From assembly GCA_963842525.1 (NCBI GenBank), contig CAWJGT010000011.1, positions 96,001-160,000 on the forward strand: a stretch of 64,000 bases of DNA. The letters run 5' to 3'. This DNA is from an uncultured Holophagales bacterium. Lineage in GTDB: Bacteria > Acidobacteriota > Thermoanaerobaculia > Multivoradales > UBA5704. The position numbers were made by a program, and so were the translations under genes. Of the stretch, positions 16,999 to 45,980 are shown one piece after another; positions within the stretch are counted from its first letter, which is position 1, and every line of letters begins with the position of its first letter. The notes below the pieces were generated by a model. The model was not told where the DNA came from, did not search any database, and worked only from the letters and a program-made list of their open reading frames with translations.

Positions 16999-17113
16999 CT
17001 GACACGGAGTGTCGGCCGGGTGACTTTTTTTGCTATACGCCTTGCCGGCGGAGCGCCCAAAACCCTGTATTTTCAAGCGATTCCGCCGGTCTGAGCCTGG
17101 CACATCGTTTGCG
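16999..17113 (+). promoter_or_regulatory. Sigma-54 promoter with upstream activator site
   Basis: TGGCACATCGTTTGCG at 17098-17113; ctgacacggagtgtcgg at 16999-17015. Confidence 0.75.
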
Positions 17114-17153
17114 TTCCCCAGGAATTGCCGTTCTCTTTGATCTGGAGAGTGCC

Positions 17154-17672
17154 ATGAGGAGAGTGCAGGGCGCACCGCAGGGTTTTAGCTTGATCGAGCT
17201 GTTGATCGTCGTCGCCATCATCGGTCTCATCGCGGCGATGCTCATTCCGAACCTGCTCGATGCCATGCAGAAGGCAAAGCAGAAGAGGACAATGGCGGAT
17301 GTACGGATCGTCGGAACCGCGATGTTTTCCTGGTTCACGGACCAGGTGGGCGCCGCCGCCGCCGGCGCCGGCAACACGACGGTGGACCTGACCTCCTACG
17401 GCAGCCGGAAGGGTGCCGCTGACCTGCACACCATCCTGGTGCCGCAGTACATCCAGGACGTTCCGCCGCGGGACGGCTGGAAGAACGCCTACGACTATTA
17501 CGTGAACGTGACCGACCTGCAGGGTCGGCACGTGCTGGCGATCCGCAGCAAGGGCGCCGACTTCGCGTCGCCGGGTGAGCAGTACAACGTCTCCTCGTTC
17601 GAGCCGACCGACTACAGCCAGGACATCGTCTGGGCGGACGGCTTCATGGTCCAGTGGCCGCAGAAGCAGTGA
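17154..17672 (+). CDS. Type IV pilin, paralogue B copy 2
   Basis: Identical to 15682..16200 except leader MRRVQG vs MRRAQG. Confidence 0.92.
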   Translation: MRRVQGAPQGFSLIELLIVVAIIGLIAAMLIPNLLDAMQKAKQKRTMADVRIVGTAMFSWFTDQVGAAAAGAGNTTVDLTSYGSRKGAADLHTILVPQYIQDVPPRDGWKNAYDYYVNVTDLQGRHVLAIRSKGADFASPGEQYNVSSFEPTDYSQDIVWADGFMVQWPQKQ

Positions 17673-17719: not shown

Positions 17720-20144
17720 ATGCGCCGCCGGATCGCCGCCCTTGCTCCTGTCTGGCTGGGGGCGGCTTGGTTGGCCAGCTTCTTCCTGCCGCTGCTCTCG
17801 CCGCGCTGGGCGCTGGCCAACCGCGACGTCCCGCTCTTCCACCTGCCGCTCCGCACCGCCTTCCGTGAGCTGGCCGCGAGCGGCCTGCCGGTGTGGAACC
17901 CCTGGCTGCACGGCGGCCAGCCGATCCTCTCGAACCCCAGCTACGCGGCCTTCTACCCGCCGAGCTGGCTGGCCTTCGCCGTCCCTCCGGCCTACGCGCT
18001 CAACCTGCTGGCGGTCCTCCATGCAGGGATCGCGTTCGCCGGGGCTTGGCGGCTCGCGCGCCGGCTCGGTACGGGCCGCGGCGCGGCTGCGCTCGCCGCC
18101 CTCGGCTACACCGGGAGCGGCGCCCTGCTCTCGCTGCTCAGCGCCTACACCCTGTTCTGCAGCATGGCCTGGTTCCCCTGGGTTCTCGCGGCGGGGGACG
18201 CTGCGCTGCGGTCGGCCGATCGCCGCGGCTGGCTGCGCCCCGCCCTGGCCTGCGGCGGCGCCCTCGCCCTCCAGCTCCTGAACGGCGAGCCGGTGACCGT
18301 CGTGGTGAGCGGGCTCGGGCTGCTCTGCCTGGCGGCATCCGCCGCAGCCCGCAACCCCCGGGCCGCGCCGCGGGTGCTGGTGCCGGTCGCGGCGGCCCTG
18401 GCCCTCGCCGCCATCCAGCTCGTCCCCACCCTGGGAAGGCTTGCCGACTCGCCGCGCGCCGGCGGGGTCGAGGCCGGCCAGGCGGCCACCTGGTCGGCGC
18501 CGCCGGCGCGCCTCGTCGAGCTGGTGTTCCCGCGCTTCTTCGGCGACCCGGCGCGCCCACAGGCCGGGGCCTTCTTCGGCTGGAACCTGCACGACCGGGA
18601 CTACCCCTACGTGGCCTCTCTGTACCCCGGCCTGCTGCTGACGGTGCTCGGGGTCTGCGCCCTCGCCCTCTGGCCCATCCCGCGCCGCGGCGCGTGGGCC
18701 CTGGCCATTGTCCTCGGCGCCTTCCTCGCCCTCGGCCGGCACAATCCGCTCTTCGAGCCTCTGCGGCAGGCAGTGCCGCTGCTCGCCGCGCTCCGCTATC
18801 CCGAGAAATTCGCCATCCTGGCGGTCGCCTGCCTCGGCTTTGCCGGCGCGCTCGGCTGGCAGCGGCTGCTCGACGAGCGCCGGGCCGGCCGCTACGCGGC
18901 GGCCGACTTCCCGCTGGCGCTCGCGCTCGTCCTGCTCGCGACGGCCACCACCCTGACCGCGCTGCTCTACCTCACCCCGCGGGCCGCCCTCTGGTTCATC
19001 CACAGCTACGGCGGGCCGGACCTCCAGCCGCGGGACGTGGTGCGCGGTCTCGCCTATCTGCGTGGCGAGGGGTGGGCGGCCGTGGCGACCGCGGCGGCGG
19101 TGGCGGCTCTGCTCGCGCTGTGCCGCTGGCGCCGCGCTCCGGAGCGAGTCCTCCTTCTTGCCGCCGTCGGGCTGCTGGCCGCCGACCTCTGGCACTACGG
19201 GCACGGTCTCGTGGCCACGATCCCGGCGGAGGCCTACCGCGAGCCGCCGCCGCTCGCGCGGGCGATGGCCCCAATGGCTCCGGGGAGCCGCGTCTGGGTC
19301 GAGCCGGCGGCCGAGAGCGGGCCGGAGCTGATCCGGCGTGGCGGCGATCCGCGGCGCGCGATCGTCCGCGCCCTGCTCGGCCGGCTCGAGCCCTATTCCG
19401 GGACCCTCTGGGGGCACTCCTACGCGATGCACGAGGACTACGACCTGATGCTCACACGCTGGGCGCGGCTCTCCCTGAGCGTCGCCGAGACCGAGCGGCG
19501 CAATGACCCGGAGATGCCGGAGATGTTTCGTCGCTATCTCGGCGCCTGGAACGTCGGCACCCTGCTGGTGCGCAAGCCGCAGGCCAAGTGGGCCCGCGAG
19601 GTGGCGCGCGATCCGGACGCGCCGCCGGTGCGGCCGGAGGTCAATCCGCGGGTGCAGCCGCGGATCCGCTTCGCGCCGCGCGCCAGCTTTCACGAGAGCT
19701 GGGAGAATGCCCTCTACGCCGCCCGCAGCCGGGGGTACCTCGCCGGCTGGGAGCACTGCATCCGCCCCGGAGACTCCCGCCACCACGGTCGTCTACCCGG
19801 CCCGGCCGGAGCTCCTCGACGTGGACGACACCGGCGGCCGCATCCGGCTACGCTACCGGGCGGTCTCGCCGGCCTTCCTCGCCGTGGCCGAGACCTTCGA
19901 CGCCGGCTGGCAGGCGATGCTGGAAGGGGAGGACATGGATGGGGAGCCTCTGCGCCTCGAGCCGACCGTGTACGGCCAACTCGGGCTGGAGCTGCCGGCG
20001 GGCGAGCATCGCCTGCTCCTCGCATATCGCGAGCGCCTGCTGCCGGCCGGAGCCGCGGTCAGCCTGCTGTCGCTCGCGGCCTTCCTGGCGGGGCTGGCGT
20101 TTATGCGCCGGAGGTCCGGCGCGAGCCGGGGACGACAGATCTGA
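17720..20144 (+). CDS. YfhO-family (GT-C-like) membrane protein, frameshift near 19775
   Basis: LPVWNPWLHGGQP...FYPPSW, LRYPEKF, ADLW; YfhO C-terminus ETFDAGWQA...LELPAGEHRLLLAY in ORF 19503..20144. Confidence 0.82.
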
Positions 20145-20420
20145 ACCGGGGGAGAGGCCCGGAAGCTGGGGGCGCCGGCTCTCAACAGGGCTGCGCATCC
20201 CCCAAGCAGGGGACGTGGGATCTGAGCGGAGGATGCGGTCCCCTGGCTGGGGGGCGTCAGCTCTGAGCAGGGGGCCGCAGCTTTGGGTGGGGGAGCTCTT
20301 CCCCAAGGCCGGGGGCGCTGCAGCCCGGCTGGAAGCTGCGCTCCCCCAGCCGGCGACGCGCCGCCCCGGACGGCCGCGCCGCTCCTCCTTGTCCGGCTGG
20401 ACCCCGACGGCCGCTGCGCG
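20145..20420. repeat. Degenerate tandem array, ~20-21 bp period
   Basis: G-runs start at ~20148, 20168, 20188, 20209, 20228, 20249, 20270, 20289, 20311 and 20331. Confidence 0.6.
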
Positions 20421-20430
20421 CCCTGATCTT

Positions 20431-21894
20431 TCAATCCGGCCGGGGGGCCGAGCGCTTCACCTTTTCGATGTCGGCGATCACCTTCCGCGTCAGGTCCGCG
20501 GTGGCGACTTCATGCTTCGCAGCCTCGCAGAAGAGCTTCAGCGCCGCCAGGGCCTCCCGCTCGATCCCCTGGTGCCGGAAGATCCACTCCATGGCGACCG
20601 CCATCTGCGCCACCTCTTTCGCGCGCCCCGCTTCCAGCCAGAGCACCGCCAGGTCCAGCCCTGAAAGAGCAGCGTCGTAGGGCAGCTCTTCGGCGGTGAA
20701 CACCCTTTGCGCCTGCTCCAGCCGTTCCATCGCCACCTGCTTTTGCCCCAACCCGGCCATGGTTTTCGCTTCCAGCCAGAGCACGCGGTTGAGGTCCAGG
20801 CGCTTGCGCTGCTTCTCGGCAAGGGAACGCACCTCAGGCATCCACCTGGCGGCCTCCGCATAGCGCTCCAGGTACACCAGGTTGGCAGCCGTGTTGAAGC
20901 GGTGTGCGAAGAGAAGGTGCTCATCACCCACTACCGCAATCTTGGCCGCGGCTTGCTCTAGAGCCACGACTGCGCCCTTGAAATCACACATTTGTTGAAA
21001 GATATTCGCTTTCATCACCAAGAGCCGCGCAATCGCGACGGTATCGATTCCCTGAGCCTCCACCGCCTGGTCGAGGAGAGTTAGGGCTTCGGCAAAGCGG
21101 TGCTGTTCCCGCCGCAGCGAGGCTTCGCGGTCGAGCATCCGCCATCCAGGGAGCAGGCCTTCGGGATCAGCGCCGGCCTTCCTGAGGTTAGCTGCCCGCG
21201 CAAAGTCGGCATCGGCCCCGTCGAAATCGTTGGCTACCCTACGAGCATTGCCAATATAGATCCAACAGTACCCCTGGAGCGCGGCGCGGAAGCCTTCGTC
21301 GCCCTCTGCCTGCTTGGCGATCGCTAGAGCGAGCTCGGCCAGCTCCAATGCCTCTTTGGTGCTGTGGGCCGCGGCGCGCTCGCTTTCGTGGCAGAGCCTC
21401 ACCGCCAGGGCCCAGCTCCGGGAGGCCCGCAGTGAGAAACCCAACCGCCGTTGCCGTTCCTGCATAGGAAAAGGTTCCAGAGCCTGCCAGACCTCGTCCG
21501 CGGCGCGAAGCGCCTCGGTGGGCGGCTGCCGGTCTTCTTCCGCTGCCCACTCTTCGAGGCTCAAGGGGATCTCCGCCAGCAGCCCGGGCTGCACGATGGC
21601 CGGTTTGAACCGGAGATCCCTCCCGCCGACGGCCGGGCCGCGCCTCCTGGTTGAAGCGAGGGCCGCGGCAAAGAAGCGCCGTGCATGCACCACGAGGGAC
21701 CAGTCAACGTCAGCGGCGCCAGCCATCCGCCGAAGCTGCTCCTCTTTCGGTGCAAGCTTTCCCGCCTCCATGAGCGAGATGTCGCTCTGGGAGATCCGGG
21801 CCTTCTCGCCAAATTTCTCCTGCGACATGCCGGCGTGGAAGCGGAGATGCGCCACCACATACTTCAAGACCGCGGGATCACCCTTCCTTGCCAT
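20431..21894 (-). CDS. XRE-family HTH fused to TPR-like helical repeats (putative regulator/peptide receptor)
   Basis: LRFHAGMSQEKFGEKARISQSDISLMEAG HTH, followed by helical repeats (GNARRVAND, RVLWLEAK, YDAALSGLDLA, IEREALAAL). Confidence 0.85.
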   Translation of the reverse strand: MARKGDPAVLKYVVAHLRFHAGMSQEKFGEKARISQSDISLMEAGKLAPKEEQLRRMAGAADVDWSLVVHARRFFAAALASTRRRGPAVGGRDLRFKPAIVQPGLLAEIPLSLEEWAAEEDRQPPTEALRAADEVWQALEPFPMQERQRRLGFSLRASRSWALAVRLCHESERAAAHSTKEALELAELALAIAKQAEGDEGFRAALQGYCWIYIGNARRVANDFDGADADFARAANLRKAGADPEGLLPGWRMLDREASLRREQHRFAEALTLLDQAVEAQGIDTVAIARLLVMKANIFQQMCDFKGAVVALEQAAAKIAVVGDEHLLFAHRFNTAANLVYLERYAEAARWMPEVRSLAEKQRKRLDLNRVLWLEAKTMAGLGQKQVAMERLEQAQRVFTAEELPYDAALSGLDLAVLWLEAGRAKEVAQMAVAMEWIFRHQGIEREALAALKLFCEAAKHEVATADLTRKVIADIEKVKRSAPRPD

Positions 21895-22010
21895 CCCTCT
21901 CGCCTCCCGATTCTGGGAATAGGCTATACCCGGTCAGTGTCCTGTTTCGGGCCGGAGCAGCGCCTGCGAGGTCATGGGGGCCGCGCCGGAGCGCTCTCCA
22001 GGGAGACGCC

Positions 22011-22313
22011 ATGTCCCATGTCTCGCTGCGTCGCAAGCTCGCCTTCCTCCTGCTCCTCGCCTTCTTCGCCGCCCCTTGGGCCACCGTGGCCGGGGAGCGG
22101 AGCGGAAGCCAACGGCCGCTGCAATCCGCCGCGGTCGAGTCCTTGAACCTCGCCGGCCGCCTGTGGCGCCTCCTGACGCGCGTCTGGAGTGAGACAGGCT
22201 GCATGATCGACCCAGGCGGCCGCTGCATCCCCGGCACGGGCGACGCGCCTGCGGCAACGACCCAGGGGGACGAAGGCTGCCAGATCGACCCATCGGGCCG
22301 CTGTGTGTCCTGA
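22011..22313 (+). CDS. Small secreted propeptide with two GCxIDPxGRC cores
   Basis: GGGAGA RBS; signal peptide MSHVSLRRKLAFLLLLAFFAAPWATVA; cores ETGCMIDPGGRC and DEGCQIDPSGRC. Confidence 0.8.
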   Translation: MSHVSLRRKLAFLLLLAFFAAPWATVAGERSGSQRPLQSAAVESLNLAGRLWRLLTRVWSETGCMIDPGGRCIPGTGDAPAATTQGDEGCQIDPSGRCVS

Positions 22314-22317
22314 TCCT

Positions 22318-23829
22318 TCAACCCCGGCCTCCCGGCGCGTTGCCCGGCCGGGAGGCCGAGCGCATCACCTTTTCGATGTCGGCGCTCACCTGCCCGGCCA
22401 GCTCCACGGTGGCGGCCTCCTGCCTGGCCGCATCGCAGAAGAGCTTCAGAGCCGCCAGGGCCTCCCGGTCGATCCGCTGGTGCCGGAAGATCCACTGCAT
22501 GGCGTTCGCCAACTGCCGCACTTCCTTCGAGCGGCCCGCTTCCAGCCAGAGCATAGCCAGATCCAGACCTGAAAGCGCTGCGTCGTAAGGGAGCTCTTCG
22601 GCGGTGAAGGTCCCCTGTACCTGTTCCAGCCGCGCCATTGCCTCCTGCTTCTGCCCCAGCCCGGCCATCGCCTTCGCTTCCAACCAGAGCACGCGGGTGA
22701 GGTCTAGGAGCTTGCGCTGCTGCTCGGCGAGAGCGCGCACCGCTGGCAGCCGCCGGGCGGCCTCTTCGTAGCGCTCCACATAGAACAGGTTGATACAGGT
22801 GTTGAACCGCAGGGCGAAAATCAGCGGCTCGTCGCCCATCCTTTCGATTGCAGGTGCGGCTTCCGCTAGAGCCGTTAGCGCACCTTCAAAATCACCCATC
22901 TGTTGAAGGATATTAGCCCTTACCAATCGGAGTCGCGCGGTCGCTAGAGCATCGCTCCTGTGTGCCGCCACTGCCCGGTCAAGTAGCGAAAGTGCTTCCG
23001 GGAACTGGTGCTGTTCCCGCCTTAGCGCGGCCTCGCGCTCGAGCATCCGCCAAGTAGGAAGTAGGCCGTCGGGGTTAGCCCCGACCTTCCAGAAGTCGGC
23101 GGCGCGGGCAAAGTCGGCATCGGCTCCATCGAAGTCGTTGCCGACCCGCCGGGCATTGGCGATGTAGATCCAGCAATACGCCTGGAGCGCGGCGCCGAAG
23201 CGGGTGTCGCCCTGGAAATGCTCGGCCATGAAGAGGGCGAGCCGCGCGAGCTCCAGCGCCTCCTTGGCGCTGTGGGCCGCGGCGCGCTCGCTTTCATGGC
23301 AGACCTTCACGGCGAGGGCCCAGCGGCGGTATTCGGGGAAGGTGAGGACCTGGTCGCGCCATTCTTCGCGCGGAACGGTCTTCAATTTGGCCCACAGCTC
23401 GGTGGCATCGCGGTGAGCCGCTGCCGCCTTTTCCTGTTTGCGTTTGCGGACCAGCTCGGCGCGCACCTCGCGGACGAGCGCCCAGCCATGGGTCATGACC
23501 GTGCGGAGGATGCGCTGGCGCTCTTCTGGAGTGAGGGCCACGGGCGAGGCCGACTCGTCAACGGACGGGGGCACGACCAGCTCGTGGAGGAAGAGGAGGA
23601 GATCGACGGCCTCGGGGGGCTGGCCGATGCGGCCCACCAGCTCCTCGAGCTGCTCACGACTCAGTGTCTGGCTGCCGATCTCGTAGCGGCGGAGCAGCTT
23701 TTCGTTGATCCTGAGGAGGTCGGCGCCGTCCTTGGGGATCGGGGCCACGAGGGCGCGGAGGTAGAGCAACGCCATGGCGGTGGCCGGGGTGATGTCCTGC
23801 TCTGGTTCCGGGGGTGTGTCCGGGCTCAT
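22318..23829 (-). CDS. Degenerate XRE-HTH + TPR-like protein, paralogue of 20431..21894
   Basis: LLYLRAL...LLRRYEIGSQTLSREQLEEL; shares CHESERAAAHS, NARRVxNDFDGADADF and EELPYDAALSGLDLA with the first copy. Confidence 0.85.
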   Translation of the reverse strand: MSPDTPPEPEQDITPATAMALLYLRALVAPIPKDGADLLRINEKLLRRYEIGSQTLSREQLEELVGRIGQPPEAVDLLLFLHELVVPPSVDESASPVALTPEERQRILRTVMTHGWALVREVRAELVRKRKQEKAAAAHRDATELWAKLKTVPREEWRDQVLTFPEYRRWALAVKVCHESERAAAHSAKEALELARLALFMAEHFQGDTRFGAALQAYCWIYIANARRVGNDFDGADADFARAADFWKVGANPDGLLPTWRMLEREAALRREQHQFPEALSLLDRAVAAHRSDALATARLRLVRANILQQMGDFEGALTALAEAAPAIERMGDEPLIFALRFNTCINLFYVERYEEAARRLPAVRALAEQQRKLLDLTRVLWLEAKAMAGLGQKQEAMARLEQVQGTFTAEELPYDAALSGLDLAMLWLEAGRSKEVRQLANAMQWIFRHQRIDREALAALKLFCDAARQEAATVELAGQVSADIEKVMRSASRPGNAPGGRG

Positions 23830-23975
23830 GCCTGTCTCCCTGAAGACCTCTTTCAGAAAGAAGGTTGCCGCACCAAGGAAATCTGTGACACGCGGGAAAC
23901 CGGACGCAGATAGTCCATATGAAATCGCGGCGGCCGGATCAGGCAATTGTGCAGCCGCCCTACGATGCCCCTGCA

Positions 23976-24185
23976 ATGGGACAAGACCCGCTGCTGTGTC
24001 AACGCCGGCCCGCCGTGGAGAGCCCGCATGTGGACGAGCGCCGCTTGCTGCGGGGTGAGCTCGATCGGGCCGAGCGGCGCCAATTCCTCCGCTGTCTGCT
24101 GAAAGGCTGCCCGGAGTGTACCGCCCTGGCACGCTGGATCTGGCGGATGGGCGAGCTTCCGGAGAAGGGCCGCGCCGCGCGATGA
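23976..24185 (+). CDS. Small protein resembling a stand-alone ZAS/zf-HC2-like zinc finger
   Basis: HVDERRLLRGELDRAERRQFLRCLLKGCPEC resembles the N-termini of the 25474 and 44736 proteins; its stop overlaps the next ATG. Confidence 0.55.
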   Translation: MGQDPLLCQRRPAVESPHVDERRLLRGELDRAERRQFLRCLLKGCPECTALARWIWRMGELPEKGRAAR

Positions 24186-24439
24186 CGTTCGGGGAGGCGC
24201 AGGCGGAGCTCCGGCAGATGCTGTCGGAGCTGGAGAGGGTACGGGCGCGGCTGCATGTCGTGCACGGGAGCCTTCCGGCAGCGCCTGAAGATCTGGACAC
24301 GGAGGATTTCGCGAGCCACCCGGAGGGGATCAGCGGGCTGCGGAGCGCAATCGAAGGCCTGTTGGCCGACCAGATCGGCCCGACGATCCGGGACGTGCGG
24401 GCGGCGCTGGAGATTCCCGAGAGAGAGCAGAAGCTGTAA
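24182..24439 (+). CDS. Small helical hypothetical protein
   Basis: ATGA-coupled ORF, MTFGEAQAELRQMLSELERVRARL...; a hairpin with T-run follows (~24481-24512). Confidence 0.65.
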   Translation: MTFGEAQAELRQMLSELERVRARLHVVHGSLPAAPEDLDTEDFASHPEGISGLRSAIEGLLADQIGPTIRDVRAALEIPEREQKL

Positions 24440-24542
24440 GGAGGCGAGGAGGCTGCGTTGTCGCCGGGTCGAATCCCCGCGCCCGGGTGCCGAAAGCCCG
24501 GGAGCTTTTTTTCTACGAGCCGGCCGAACGAAAGGAGCGTAG

Positions 24543-25123
24543 ATGGACGACGATCTGCTGAGGTTCTGCACGTTCATGGCGCGGGACCCCGACGGGGGGG
24601 AAGGCTGTTGCCCGGCGCCGCCTAGCGCAGGGGAGCCGGAAGCGGTCCCGGCCCTGAAGCTGGATCACATCGCGGTGGTGGTGGCGGATCTGGAACGAGC
24701 GGTCCATCTGTTCACGCTCCTCGGGTACGAGGCGACGGAGCAGCGGCGCATGGCCGGCAATCTGAGCGTGATGATGAAGAGCGGTGAGTCGGCGATCGCT
24801 CTGTTCGTCCCCGTGAGCCGGCATTCAGATCTTCGCCAGTTCGTGGCGACCCGGGGCGCGGGGTTGCAGCACATCGCCTTCGAGGCGGCGAGCCTGGAGC
24901 AGGCGGCGGAGGTCCTTGGCTGTGTTCTCGAATGGGAGCGGGAACCGTTCGTCCATGCCGGGCTCCGTATGCTGTGGTCGAAGCCGGACCCGACCACCGG
25001 GCTGGTCATCGAGCTGTTCGAACGCCGCGCCGCGGGCGAGGAAGAGGGCGAGGCGCCGACGTGCTGCAGGAACACGTGTTTGTGGCGTTCCTGCGACGGC
25101 AGGTCGCCTTTTGCGACGGTTGA
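24543..25123 (+). CDS. VOC (glyoxalase / methylmalonyl-CoA epimerase-like) protein; C-terminus uncertain
   Basis: KLDHIAVVVADLERA...GLQHIAF...GLVIELFE; AAAGGAG RBS. The uncorrected ORF runs to 25337. Confidence 0.75.
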
Positions 25124-25129
25124 TCGTGC

Positions 25130-25349
25130 TGCAGGGCAAGGGCGAGCCGCGGCTGGATTTTTTGCTGCGGGTGGTGCGCGCGTCGCGCGACCCGGGCTGG
25201 CGCAACCCGAGGTCGCGGGCCACCTCGACCGCAGCCTTCGCCAATTCCACCATCTCCCCCACATCGCGGTGCCGGACTTCCCAGCTCCGCGCCAGCAGAG
25301 CCGCATAGACCCCGCCCACCCTGGCGGCTCTCCTTGACTGCGCGCGCAT
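25130..25349 (-). pseudogene. Fragment of the same TPR-like family
   Basis: ALLARSWEVRHRDVGEMVELAKAAVEVA resembles the first helical repeat of the neighbouring TPR proteins. Confidence 0.4.
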
Positions 25350-25473: not shown

Positions 25474-26776
25474 GTGGACGGCCATTTGAGTCGAGAGGCA
25501 TTGAGCCGGATGTTCGCGGGAGGGGACGAGCGGGACGCCGCGCAGGTGCTTCACCTGCTGGACTGCGAGCCTCTGCTTCGCCCTGGCCCAGGAATTCCTG
25601 GCGGCCTGCCAGGAGGACGAAGACGGCGGGAGCGAGCTGCTGTGGGGGCCGGTCGGGGTGCCGGTGGAGACGGCGGTCTGGGCCGCCGAAGCGGCGCCGT
25701 TGTACGCCGAGCTGCTCGGCCTGGCGGCGCCGCGCCGTTTCGAGGCGATCCGGGAGGCGCGGTTCAAGAACCTGTTTCTGGCGGAGCTGCTCCTGCGGGA
25801 AGGCGAGCGGCTCGCACCGGCAGAGCCGGAGAAGTCGGAAGAGCTGGCCCTCCTCGCCTATCACCTCGGAGGGTCTACGTATCCGCGGGAGCTGAGCGTC
25901 TGGGTCGAAGAGGTCGTGGCGCGGTCCTGCTGCCTGTTGGGGAACGCCCGCCGCGTGGGTGGAGACCTGGAGGGTGCCGACAAGAGGTTTCGCATGGCGT
26001 CGGCCGCTCTGGCAGTGCCTCCGGATTCGCCGGTGCGGGCCTTTTTCTGCCAGATGCTGGCCTATTTGCGCGAGGACCAGAGCCGCGACCGGGAGGCCGA
26101 GCCGCTGCTCTGGCGAGCGGCCCGGATCTACCGCGAGGCAGGGCGGAGAGCGCCGCAGGGGGAATGCAATTGCCGGCTTGGCTTCCTTTTCTTGCGGGCA
26201 TACGACCTGGAGAGGGCGGCATCGGTCCTGTTGCGCGCCTGGCTGCTGCTCCAGGATGCGGGCTCGCCGTTGCTTGCGGCGCGCTCAGGCCTCGGCCTGG
26301 CCGTCTGTCTGGCGGCGCTCGGGCAGCCCAGGGCGGCCAGAGTCCTGCTGGAACAGTGCCGCGAGCTGACGACCGTGTGGCAAGGCGACTCCGCAGAGCT
26401 GGTCCGTCTGCACTGGCTGGAGGGCAGGATCGAAGCGCACCTCGGCGACCTGGCGGAAGCGGTGCCGCGTCTCGAAGCCGTGCGCCGCCGGCTGTTGGAC
26501 GAGGAGAAGCTGGTGGAGAGCGCCCTCTGCACCATCGACCTGGCGACCGTGTACGCAAAGGTCGGCCGGGCAGAGGACATCCTGCCTCTGATTCATGAAA
26601 TCGCCGCCCATTTTCCGGGCTCCCTCGGCCTGACGCGCATCCTGGTGGCGTTGTGCGGTGTGCTGAACACGGCCCACCTGGGCGAGGGCGACCTCGAAAC
26701 CGTGGCCCGCAGGGCGGTGGGCCTGATCCTCCGTCCCGAGGAGTGGCACGAGCCGCCTCCTCCGGAGGAAAACTGA
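25474..26776 (+). CDS. ZAS-like zinc finger + TPR-like protein, frameshift near 25572
   Basis: MDGHLSREALSR...HLLDCExC, then GNARRVGGD, LHWLEGRI and SALCTIDLA in ORF 25658..26776. Confidence 0.78.
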
Positions 26777-44346: not shown

Positions 44347-44619
44347 ATGCCCCGATGTCGTCTCCGCAGCGCCCTTCTCCTTCTGGCGATCCTTGTCCTC
44401 CTTCCCGGAGTCGCCGCCGCCCGGCCGGTTACTTCTGACTCCGGCGGCCCAGCCGCTCTACGCCCCCCCGCACTCTTCGCCGCCGTCCTTTCCCGCCTTG
44501 TCGACCTTGTCTCCTTCTTCTGGGCTGCCGACTCGGCGGACACGGGCATGTCCATCGACCACCACGGCCCGCCGGGAGAGACGGTCGACACGGGCATGAC
44601 GATCGACCCTCACGGCTAG
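44347..44619 (+). CDS. Small secreted propeptide with two DTGMxIDxHG cores
   Basis: GAGGAG RBS; signal peptide MPRCRLRSALLLLAILVLLPGVAAA; cores DTGMSIDHHG and DTGMTIDPHG at the C-terminus. Confidence 0.8.
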   Translation: MPRCRLRSALLLLAILVLLPGVAAARPVTSDSGGPAALRPPALFAAVLSRLVDLVSFFWAADSADTGMSIDHHGPPGETVDTGMTIDPHG

Positions 44620-44735: not shown

Positions 44736-45980
44736 ATGGAACATTCGCATCTGTCGCAGGAGACGCTCGCGAGGTGGCTGGCCGGCCGGCTGGAGCACGA
44801 GGCCGTGCTCAGCGAGGTCGTTCCTCACTTCCTGTCCAACTGCACCGTCTGCCGGGATCGGGTCGCAGAGATCCGCAAGCTCCAGGAGGAGGTCGGCCAC
44901 TGGGACGAGGAGGTGGCTGTCATCGAAGGGCAGGAGGCTCCCGAGCTGCTGAGGAGGATCGAGGATCAACCTTTCGCGGAGCAGGCCCGGCGAGCGGAGC
45001 AAGACGACGCCCTGCACACCTGGGGCCTGTGTCACCTTCTGCTGAAGAAGAGCCTCGACCGGATTTCGGACGAGCCTGCCAGGGCACTCGATCTGGCCGA
45101 TCTGGCCGTGCGGATCTCCCGGCACCTCGGCGAGGCCTATCATCCGGCCTGGGTGCTCGGTCTGCGGGCCCGAGCCTTTGCCTACCTCGCCAATGCCCGC
45201 CGGGTGCTCGGCGAGCTGCGCAGCTCCGAAGCGGCCTTCCGCAAGGCCGAGGCCTGTCTCGATCGCAGCGGGCTCGGGGACCCGGGGACCGAGGCCGAGA
45301 TCCTCGATATGAAGAGCTCGCTTCGACGTGAGGCCTTGGAGCTATCGGACCGTGCGCTCGCTCTATACCGGGAGGCCCGGGACACTCATGGGGTTGGTAT
45401 CGGTCTCCTCAAGAAAGGCAAGATCCTTGAGGAGGCCGGCGATCTGGGTCCGGCCGAATGGCTCCAGCAGAGCGCCGCCGAAATCGACGCTTCAGGCGAT
45501 CCTCGCCTTTCGACCTCTCTCCGGTACAACCTCGTGGGCTGCCTGACCCTGGCCGGCCGCCATTCCGAGGCGGAGCGGCTGCTGCCGGAGGTGCGGTCGT
45601 TGTTTCAGGAAACGGCGCAGCCCTTGGACTGGGTCCGGCTGCGGTGGGCCGAGGGGTCCATCGCCTGCGGGTTGGGGCGGACCGGGGAGGCCGAGCCCGC
45701 CTTCCGCGAGGTCCAGCGCGAGTTCCTGGACCGTGGCATGGACTACAACGCCGCCCTGGTCGCCCTCGATTTGGCTGGCCTCCTCGCCCACGAGGGGCGC
45801 ACCGCCGAGCTGAAGAGTCTCGCTGCCGAGCTTTTGCAGGCTTTCGAGATGCGGGAGATCTACCGCGAGGCGGCGGCTGTCTTTCTCCTTTTCCGTCAGG
45901 CGTGTGAGGAGGAGCGTTTCACCAACGAGCTCGCGCGTCACCTGGCCAGCCTGCTGCGCGAGCGGCGGAGGGACAGATAG
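44736..45980 (+). CDS. ZAS-like zinc finger + TPR-like protein
   Basis: HLSQETLARWLAG...PHFLSNCTVC; ANARRVLGE, LRWAEGSIA, YNAALVALDLA and IYREAAA. Confidence 0.85.
   Translation: MEHSHLSQETLARWLAGRLEHEAVLSEVVPHFLSNCTVCRDRVAEIRKLQEEVGHWDEEVAVIEGQEAPELLRRIEDQPFAEQARRAEQDDALHTWGLCHLLLKKSLDRISDEPARALDLADLAVRISRHLGEAYHPAWVLGLRARAFAYLANARRVLGELRSSEAAFRKAEACLDRSGLGDPGTEAEILDMKSSLRREALELSDRALALYREARDTHGVGIGLLKKGKILEEAGDLGPAEWLQQSAAEIDASGDPRLSTSLRYNLVGCLTLAGRHSEAERLLPEVRSLFQETAQPLDWVRLRWAEGSIACGLGRTGEAEPAFREVQREFLDRGMDYNAALVALDLAGLLAHEGRTAELKSLAAELLQAFEMREIYREAAAVFLLFRQACEEERFTNELARHLASLLRERRRDR

Follow-up and report, generated by a model that had tools for sequence, protein, structure and literature searches.

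The stretch of DNA analysed here, referred to as the window, comprises 64,000 nt (positions 96001-160000 of contig C11, CAWJGT010000011.1) of the 9.95-Mb, 34-contig assembly GCA_963842525.1 of an uncultured Holophagales bacterium, with a GC content of 63-75% across its length. Between positions 20431 and 23829 it carries a gene for a small, putatively secreted peptide flanked by the genes of two paralogous tetratricopeptide repeat (TPR) regulators, here called U and D. Our results indicate that the locus represents a regulatory cassette specific to the lineage of Thermoanaerobaculia-type Acidobacteriota and massively amplified there, with approximately 60 copies in this genome. An earlier sequence-only reading of the window had regarded the locus as a candidate peptide-signalling system, and its positions for all three genes are correct: U (20431-21894, minus strand, 487 aa), a regulator with an XRE-type helix-turn-helix (HTH) domain and nine TPRs; the pre-pro-peptide gene (22011-22313, plus strand, 100 aa); and D (22318-23829, minus strand, 503 aa). 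The peptide gene is indeed divergent from U, from which it is separated by 116 nt, and convergent with D, with 4 nt between the two stop codons. As a description of the cassette these three genes are right but incomplete, since two further genes (zf and hx), a second architecture with a fused regulator, and the approximately 60 copies also belong to it.

The linkage between peptide and TPR genes is far beyond chance, and it is replicated both within this genome and between genomes. Tblastn searches of this genome gave 113 matches for U (E<=1e-3), which merge to ~95 loci, and 31 matches for the peptide (E<1e-3). A heuristic scan for open reading frames (ORFs) with a Met, a basic residue, a hydrophobic run and then [ILMV]DPxG returned 74 small ORFs, 55 of which have a family TPR locus no more than 1 kb away, compared to 2.8% of 20,000 random 300-nt windows; the other 19 include obvious false positives and copies at contig ends. 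Hidden Markov models (HMMs) built from an alignment of 28 peptides (A1) and one of 15 TPR proteins (A3) subsequently provided a census of 63 peptide ORFs and 158 TPR ORF pieces. A family TPR gene adjoins 55 of these 63 peptide ORFs: it is convergent in 20 cases (type A), only divergent in one, and located downstream on the same strand in 34 (type B), with eight peptide ORFs left unclassified. The census is slightly inflated by two pairs of identical cassettes near contig ends (C8:904-1179 = C10:32938-33213 and C9:4061-4408 = C18:2594-2941); these probably reflect repeats left unresolved in the assembly or a duplication of contig ends.

The same association was encountered in other genomes. With the single U protein as query no relative was found in the genome contigs searched, and the DNA pattern of the peptide core was used instead; it matched at least 113 stretches, of which 80 were fetched, a sample that is biased to Cys-type peptides by this mode of retrieval. 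The peptide HMM matched in 68 of the 80 stretches and a family TPR gene adjoined in 67 of these 68 (loci L094 and L095 overlap, which makes for slightly fewer independent loci). The lone peptide locus without TPR gene is a weak match (E 6e-4) on a Verrucomicrobia contig. None of the 12 loci without peptide match, i.e., chance occurrences of the pattern in Planctomycetota, Anaerolineales, actinomycetes, proteobacteria, and one member of the Terriglobales, showed a TPR match. The 67 two-gene loci, on the other hand, are labelled as Thermoanaerobaculia, Thermoanaerobaculaceae, Thermoanaerobaculum, Holophagales, or Acidobacteriota. The obligatory linkage is thus observed in both data sets, and the enrichment of peptide genes next to TPR genes on which the sequence-only reading had made its case depend has been borne out.

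Within the Acidobacteriota the distribution is narrow. The peptide profile matches every one of the 24 genomes searched within the same family, at 2-57 matches per genome, as well as seven of 16 other genomes of the order; in an even sample of the phylum it was found in only two of 301 genomes, our own included (E<=1e-5, with 16 candidates scored per genome). The TPR profile matches 38 of 41 relatives at E<=1e-30, and the three genomes without TPR match also lack the peptide. A DNA search of five genomes of the same genus revealed no close orthologue of the window cassette, with at most 67-76% identity over pieces, which points to a fast turnover of cassettes. The core DNA pattern had no matches in viral contigs, although with one pattern only this has little bearing on phages.

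The 100-aa precursor reads as had been claimed, i.e., a predicted signal peptide (residues ~1-28), a spacer, a W-rich helix (residues 47-59; LAGRLWRLLTRVW), a first core (residues 60-72, nt 22188-22226; ETGCMIDPGGRC), a linker, and a second core (residues 86-98, nt 22266-22304; DEGCQIDPSGRC). Both cores contain a G-C-x-I-D-P-x-G-R-C loop, in which the variable positions are not the same (CMIDPGGRC vs. CQIDPSGRC). The signal peptide was recognised by eye and with a heuristic from its basic n-region (RRK), followed by at least nine hydrophobic residues in a row and by small residues ahead of the spacer, and this signal-peptide-like feature is conserved among 28 paralogues. The precursor belongs to no Pfam or NCBIfam family. 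When 1.84 billion proteins were searched with the profile, 3046 cluster representatives passed E<=1e-3, of which 1059 remained at E<=1e-10 and 14 at E<=1e-30; the 186 homologues in an annotated collection are all unnamed or “hypothetical” and carry no Pfam domain, and the ESM Atlas returned unnamed Acidobacteriota clusters only.

Family members range from ~70 to 160 aa and share a plan of a signal peptide, a variable spacer, a helix with LWxxLTxxW, and one to four cores. The scaffold of the core, [DKE]-x-G-C-x-[IL]-D-P-x-G-x-C, was derived from 301 cores in 133 ORFs, with frequencies of 92% for G, 97% for D, and 77% for the first Cys (the extraction pattern itself prescribes P and G). The second Cys follows seven residues after the first in 212 of the 232 cores that have a first Cys. 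The entropy at the three x positions amounts to 3.7, 2.8, and 3.1 bits compared to 0-1.6 bits at scaffold positions, and the loops are, therefore, hypervariable on a fixed scaffold. The same is evident from metagenomic orthologues of the window peptide (68-81% identity), in which G-C-x-[ILV]-D-P-x-G-x-C is invariant and both x positions within the loop vary in almost all cases. A Cys-free sub-family (...G-x-x-[IL]-D-P-N-G) consists of tandem units and often terminates exactly at the Gly; many non-Cys members have their stop codon directly after ...DPNG, ...DPDG, or ...DPHG. Short secreted ORFs of yet another, divergent sub-type, ending ...C-I-D-P-x-G-x-P-x-P-C, are interspersed in an array at C9:424157-441065 that counts eight or more family TPR genes.

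The two regulators had been described as XRE-HTH/TPR proteins, of which Pfam bears out the HTH in U only. U matches the Pfam families HTH_31 (E 1.3e-7, 32.2 bits, cut-off 27) and HTH_3 (E 1.3e-5, 25.6 bits, cut-off 23), and, below the cut-off of 30.1 bits, TPR_12 (E 1.7e-5, 25.4 bits). Among 8000 scored candidates 984 homologues of U were found at E<=1e-20, which bear generic names only (e.g., [quoted passage not shown]). D is 66% identical to U across U residues 122-486. A Pfam scan of D in the window gives no HTH; its N-terminus aligns with the HTH of its paralogues, and the HTH of D thus appears degenerate in the window copy. Of the full-length D proteins in the foreign loci, 49 out of 53 possess a Pfam HTH (E<=1e-3), and the HTH of the U class is conserved from cassette to cassette.

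The two halves of these proteins have different histories. For the 22 cassettes in which both U and D are full-length, the identity of the TPR part (residues 156-485) is 0.73 between U and D of the same cassette and 0.46 for U-D pairs from other cassettes, for U-U pairs, and for D-D pairs alike. For the HTH part (residues 1-85) these values are 0.25 for U and D of the same cassette, 0.24 for U and D of other cassettes, 0.30 for U-U, and 0.35 for D-D. Consequently, the nearest neighbour of a TPR part is its cassette partner in 37 of 44 cases, whereas an HTH has its nearest neighbour within its own position class in 43 of 44. U and D are homogenised from about residue 156 onwards, with the helices at 285-341 showing the highest cassette-specific signal. 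This mosaic evolution of sensor and output indicates one sensor specificity per cassette combined with two distinct DNA-binding domains, and fits with U and D reading a common, cassette-specific ligand. Selection for a shared ligand would explain the likeness of U and D, but gene conversion between two direct repeats could also maintain it.

An AlphaFold2 model based on alignment A3 (pLDDT 85) shows an N-terminal HTH, a disordered linker (residues 85-121), and 18 helices (residues 125-482) that form nine TPR-like hairpins. The predicted fold is thus a TPR superhelix of nine repeats, a type known for peptide binding. Foldseek ranked LGN/Pins at the top, followed by the Rap proteins, with PlcR lower, and a Foldseek-independent structural search gave Z scores of 23.5 for LGN, 23.1 for Pins, 21.3 for RapI, 19.7 for NprR, 19.3 for a phage Rap, 19-20 for APC subunits, 18-19 for designed TPRs, 17.3 for MalT domain III, and 16.3 for PlcR. 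The comparison with RRNPP folds that the sequence-only reading had proposed gives RapI and NprR as close structural matches to the modelled superhelix, neither of which scores above LGN. In searches of PDB sequences a family profile matches PlcR over the HTH only (E 3.1e-4), with the TPR part matching designed TPRs. The fold is as near to LGN and APC subunits as to Rap and NprR, and fold and sequence together neither show nor exclude descent from RRNPP receptors. A complex prediction for the TPR domain of U (residues 120-487) with the mature peptide (residues 29-100) scored 0.01, which speaks neither for nor against binding.

In the foreign loci the peptide gene is followed in 66 of 68 cases by a convergent, usually full-length, HTH-TPR gene D, with stop-to-stop distances of mostly 1-80 nt, and is preceded in 63 of 68 by a divergent U at a start-to-start distance of 110-250 nt. 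These U proteins are full-length, cut to approximately half, or reduced to the HTH alone, the short forms being plain XRE HTH proteins (HTH_3, E 1e-11 to 1e-14). Clustering of the remaining ORFs in up to 3 kb on each side of the 68 loci yielded one recurrent group, present in 20 loci, which resolves into two families, zf and hx, that lie past the 5′ end of D and are divergent from it. No other identifiable recurrent family was found in these flanks; clusters from 10, 7, and 4 loci resembled off-frame ORFs of GC-rich DNA. With HMMs, zf was detected at 30 foreign loci and hx at 37; in this genome zf occurs 33 times and hx 12 times. In the window, zf is located at 23919-24185 (plus strand; motif ...LLRGEL...CLLKGCPEC...; family HMM E 6.9e-11), divergent from D, with a promoter-like site ahead of it at 23885-23914. 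Its stop codon is overlapped by the ATG of hx (ATGA), which encodes an 85-aa helical protein (24182-24439, plus strand; family HMM E 1.1e-14) without Pfam family and is followed by a terminator-like hairpin at 24482-24512 (plus strand; 7-pair stem of which 6 GC, then the T-run AGCTTTTTTT). The zf family is characterised by HPxPxQLERFMRGEL...VVRHLLxGCPxC... with an H/C-x4-C-x2-C arrangement, and the hx family by ...SLPxP...acidic...E[LVM]RxxIECV[LI]xDxIxPAIRDL.

The zf HMM also matches the N-termini of the type-B TPR proteins (E 1e-5 to 1e-19), which identifies type B as a zf-TPR fusion; this kinship rests on our own HMM, the N-termini giving no Pfam match even at E<=5. One type of TPR domain, therefore, occurs with two N-terminal partners, HTH or zf, and the peptide gene adjoins both forms. 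The window itself holds an example of this second architecture, with a peptide gene of the non-Cys type at 44347-44619 (plus strand), ending ...GMTIDPHG-stop, and downstream on the same strand a type-B receptor (44736-45980) with a zf-like N-terminus and a family TPR domain that matches TPR_MalT below the cut-off (E 1.1e-10). A further TPR paralogue (25658-26776, plus strand, E 1.5e-8) has no adjoining peptide gene. Upstream of it a zf-like N-terminus (MDGHLSREAL...HLLDCEP...) is found in another frame from position 25474, and the region 25474-26776 may thus be a frameshifted copy, judged by eye. Many family TPR genes of this assembly are broken over two to four frames (e.g., C1:45283-46984, C19:68953-70584, C5:32927-35375, and C4:4239-5718).

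The region shared by U and the peptide gene (21895-22010) contains an AT-richer stretch with a short palindrome (ATAGGCTAT) and the peptide leader, which forms a GC-rich palindrome and putative hairpin (21954-21999, plus strand) that ends just before the Shine-Dalgarno sequence. The hairpin is conserved and covaries: in 44 leaders 79.1% of the cells are paired, compared to 42-50% with slid partners, 16 of 17 pairs are altered on both sides, and none of 500 shuffles reaches any of the five measures, although this count is biased in favour of the hairpin since the structure was derived from single-sequence folds of the same leaders. The minimum free energy z-score averages -1.6, with 17 of 44 leaders below -2, and RNAalifold on a MAFFT alignment recovered only three apical pairs. 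The hairpin is also found ahead of type-B peptide genes, which lack an HTH-TPR partner, making it likelier an RNA feature than an operator for the HTH proteins. Rfam gave no match for the hairpin in 20300-24700, the sole match being at chance level (gntR-DTE, E 0.49, inside D). Perfect 5+5 palindromes upstream of the hairpin occur in 17 of 44 loci versus 6.2 ± 2.2 in shuffles (maximum 13), and AT-richer palindromes that are specific for sub-groups recur there (e.g., ACATAGGTTATGT and GTGGATTAATCCAC); these are candidate operators. In the foreign loci a box, GGCAC(C/T)NT(A/G), furthermore recurs at 10-15 nt before the hairpin, a candidate promoter element. An assignment of this box as a sigma-54 element was dropped as the GG-to-GC spacing, inspected by eye, is off by one.

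How the cassette works can be approached from this architecture. The reading we favour, in which our confidence is evenly divided, is that of a circuit composed of a peptide signal and a cytoplasmic receptor, similar to the RRNPP systems. The precursor would be exported by Sec and cut outside the cytoplasm to release one peptide per core, each a nine-residue loop C-x-[IL]-D-P-x-G-x-C that is probably closed by a disulfide and whose hypervariable x positions would carry the specificity. The peptide would then re-enter the cell and bind to the TPR superhelix of U and D. U may act on the divergent U/peptide promoter region, forming a feedback loop, and D on the divergent zf-hx operon, the presumed output; in the second architecture the zf domain would be fused straight onto the TPR sensor.

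Several considerations weigh against such a circuit. A cytoplasmic receptor in a diderm requires that the peptide crosses the outer membrane twice and is imported, and there is no importer in the cassette among the recurrent flanks of the 68 loci. The genome as a whole has only three SBP_bac_5 genes, without adjoining permease genes in the two regions examined, which points to a capacity for uptake at most. Furthermore, the cytoplasm would reduce a disulfide, and approximately 60 parallel channels in one genome far exceed any peptide quorum-sensing repertoire that we know of, and with IDPxG invariant the scaffold offers few positions in which so many specificities could be encoded. To our knowledge, RRNPP propeptides contain nothing comparable to the conserved W-helix. 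The structural matches, which include APC subunits and designed TPRs, are those that TPR superhelices give in general, and gene conversion could keep the TPR parts of U and D similar without any selection by a ligand. Finally, the frame-split TPR genes could represent decay and pseudogenes, or errors of long-read assembly. Two of the three SBP_bac_5 (OppA-like) genes are located ~5 kb or less from family TPR genes (C9:403483-405414 and C1:375095-376933), with a dCache-HAMP histidine kinase next to one, or DUF3179 genes, as neighbours; in view of the lack of adjoining permease genes this proximity was not counted as linkage to an importer.

The favoured circuit could be extended to a massively parallel peptide code, in which dozens of orthogonal, disulfide-looped pheromones are each read by paired receptors with the same sensor that drive two promoters, and in which the zf-TPR proteins act via protein partners. 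This would represent RRNPP-type quorum sensing or kin recognition, either invented independently in diderms or descended from an outgroup of the RRNPPA family. We consider this extension speculative and on balance rather unlikely.

An explanation less probable than the favoured circuit, albeit one to be taken seriously, is that the peptide is the output of the cassette rather than its signal, i.e., a secreted effector (such as a disulfide-stabilised antimicrobial, competitor-directed, adhesive, or metal-binding mini-protein), with the HTH/TPR regulators sensing another cue. The signal peptide and the Cys-bounded loops suit extracellular life, the Trp-rich amphipathic helix could be membrane-active, effectors in an arms race typically combine a fixed scaffold with hypervariable residues as well, and the lack of a linked importer would pose no problem. 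An effector does not, however, account for the cassette-specific TPR sensor that is common to U and D alongside position-specific HTHs, nor does it explain why at 34 loci of this genome the peptide gene lies directly upstream of a zf-TPR receptor that has no HTH. In addition, no immunity-like or membrane protein is recurrent in the flanks of the 68 loci, and approximately 60 dedicated sets of regulators for 60 small effectors would be unusual.

It is improbable that the gene encodes the multi-core precursor of a ribosomally synthesised and post-translationally modified peptide (RiPP), in which the W-helix would be the leader for maturation enzymes encoded elsewhere and the TPR proteins scaffolds or regulators. 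The layout of a conserved helix followed by one to four repeated, Cys-containing cores would be appropriate, and a paralogue of the TPR family weakly matches the NCBIfam model HaaT, a RiPP-associated TPR protein (E 1.7e-4, far under the cut-off). Yet a Sec signal peptide precedes the supposed leader, and many family members lack any Cys. The sequence-only reading had already observed that a modifying enzyme is not adjacent, and Pfam and NCBIfam indeed recognise none adjoining in the window; the recurrent identifiable flanks of the 68 loci contain zf and hx only, although unlinked enzymes were not searched for.

Equally doubtful is the idea that the TPR proteins bind the precursor, for instance by its W-helix, in the cytoplasm before it is exported, so that the cassette reports on the state of export or the envelope instead of cell density. 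It would remove the need for re-import over two membranes, it would account for the W-helix as the best-conserved element outside the cores, and the leader hairpin suggests a tight control of precursor synthesis. The hypervariable loops and the tandem cores, with their ends precisely at the C-terminus, would then be left without explanation, as would the upkeep of approximately 60 different reporters of one process.

That the small ORF is a chance open frame is effectively refuted by its conservation: high-GC DNA is rich in spurious ORFs and several overlap the peptide ORF, but the signal peptide, helix, and cores are conserved among the homologues (the 3046 representatives), the GC content by codon position (0.66/0.60/0.85, with the third position above the first two) looks coding, a Shine-Dalgarno sequence (GGGAGA) lies 7 nt ahead of the ATG, and the gene has a fixed place in the cassette.

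Other genes in the neighbourhood of the window cassette encode a GspG/PilA-like pseudopilin (17109-17672, plus strand), an 848-aa product (17720-20266, plus strand) that matches neither Pfam nor NCBIfam and may, from its hydrophobic sequence, be a membrane protein, and a glyoxalase/methylmalonyl-CoA-epimerase-like protein (24543-25337, plus strand). None of these three is recurrent alongside the cassette.

Among the known systems with which the cassette can be compared, MalT resembles it in having a ligand-sensing TPR domain tied to a transcriptional output. Several family members have TPR_MalT as their nearest Pfam model (E 6.7e-7 to 6.7e-11, in each case under the 45-bit cut-off), and MalT domain III is a structural match (Z 17.3). 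The cassette proteins lack a STAND ATPase module, however, and the ligand of MalT is a sugar and not a peptide encoded by a neighbouring gene. The zf proteins and the N-termini of type B carry ...GEL...E...V..HLL..C..C..., which recalls the signature of the zinc-binding anti-sigma (ZAS, zf-HC2) proteins. All matches of the zf family to models of this type fall under the curated cut-offs (zf-HC2 E 0.026-2.2, NCBIfam “antisigma” 0.0086, ChrR 0.09), with 8.9 bits for the zf of the window and 15.1 bits for its best relative compared to the zf-HC2 cut-off of 22.2. The spacing here is H-x4-C-x2-C, in contrast to the H-x3-C-x2-C of ZAS proteins. The type-B sequences inspected by eye show no transmembrane segment, and there is no sigma factor among the recurrent flank families, although no search aimed at sigma factors was made.

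The closest analogy is with the RRNPP systems. As in NprR-NprX and AimR-AimP, an HTH+TPR receptor of ~490 aa is encoded beside a Sec-type propeptide with conserved cores in its C-terminal part, and NprR (Z 19.7) and the Rap proteins (Z 18-21) rank high among the structural matches. The cassette agrees with the five computable criteria in the accessible part of PMC10075063, including a propeptide of 10-100 aa (100 aa here), its export by Sec or PptAB (by inspection of the sequence), a receptor of ~250-500 aa with TPRs (487 aa for U; D, with 503 aa, is slightly over), and neighbouring receptor and propeptide genes (116 and 4 nt). The RRNPP-like character proposed by the sequence-only reading is in this respect upheld, but not at the level of sequence, where the similarity to PlcR stops at the HTH. 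Rap-Phr propeptides with tandemly duplicated pheromones offer a precedent for an exported precursor with more than one core, which implies cutting outside the cell, as far as described in the accessible part of PMC11343458; Rap proteins have no HTH, and the cores here differ from each other at variable positions. RRNPP peptides are short and linear, whereas the cores here are Cys-bounded loops preceded by a W-helix, and the cassette comprises two receptors per peptide, with one sensor and differing HTHs, together with zf and hx, in ~60 copies and without a linked Opp importer.

Peptide signalling via cytoplasmic TPR receptors is considered a hallmark of the Bacillota and their phages and plasmids, the range to which the RRNPPA family is confined in the accessible parts of PMC10075063 and PMC12700828, and an outgroup of this family is still missing (PMC12700828, accessible part). 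All 67 two-gene foreign loci, in contrast, are labelled as Acidobacteriota, which are diderm. In the literature searched we found no report of RRNPP systems in Acidobacteria nor of an HTH/TPR system in Thermoanaerobaculia, and peptide signalling of this kind thus appears undescribed in the Acidobacteriota. The partly accessible RRNPP literature that was searched likewise holds no description of paired receptors with one sensor and two DNA-binding domains or of a zf-TPR fusion. If the favoured circuit is correct, this form of communication would extend to Gram-negative bacteria, i.e., soil Acidobacteriota, and the cassettes would constitute a natural library of matched peptide/receptor pairs, offering testable hypotheses.

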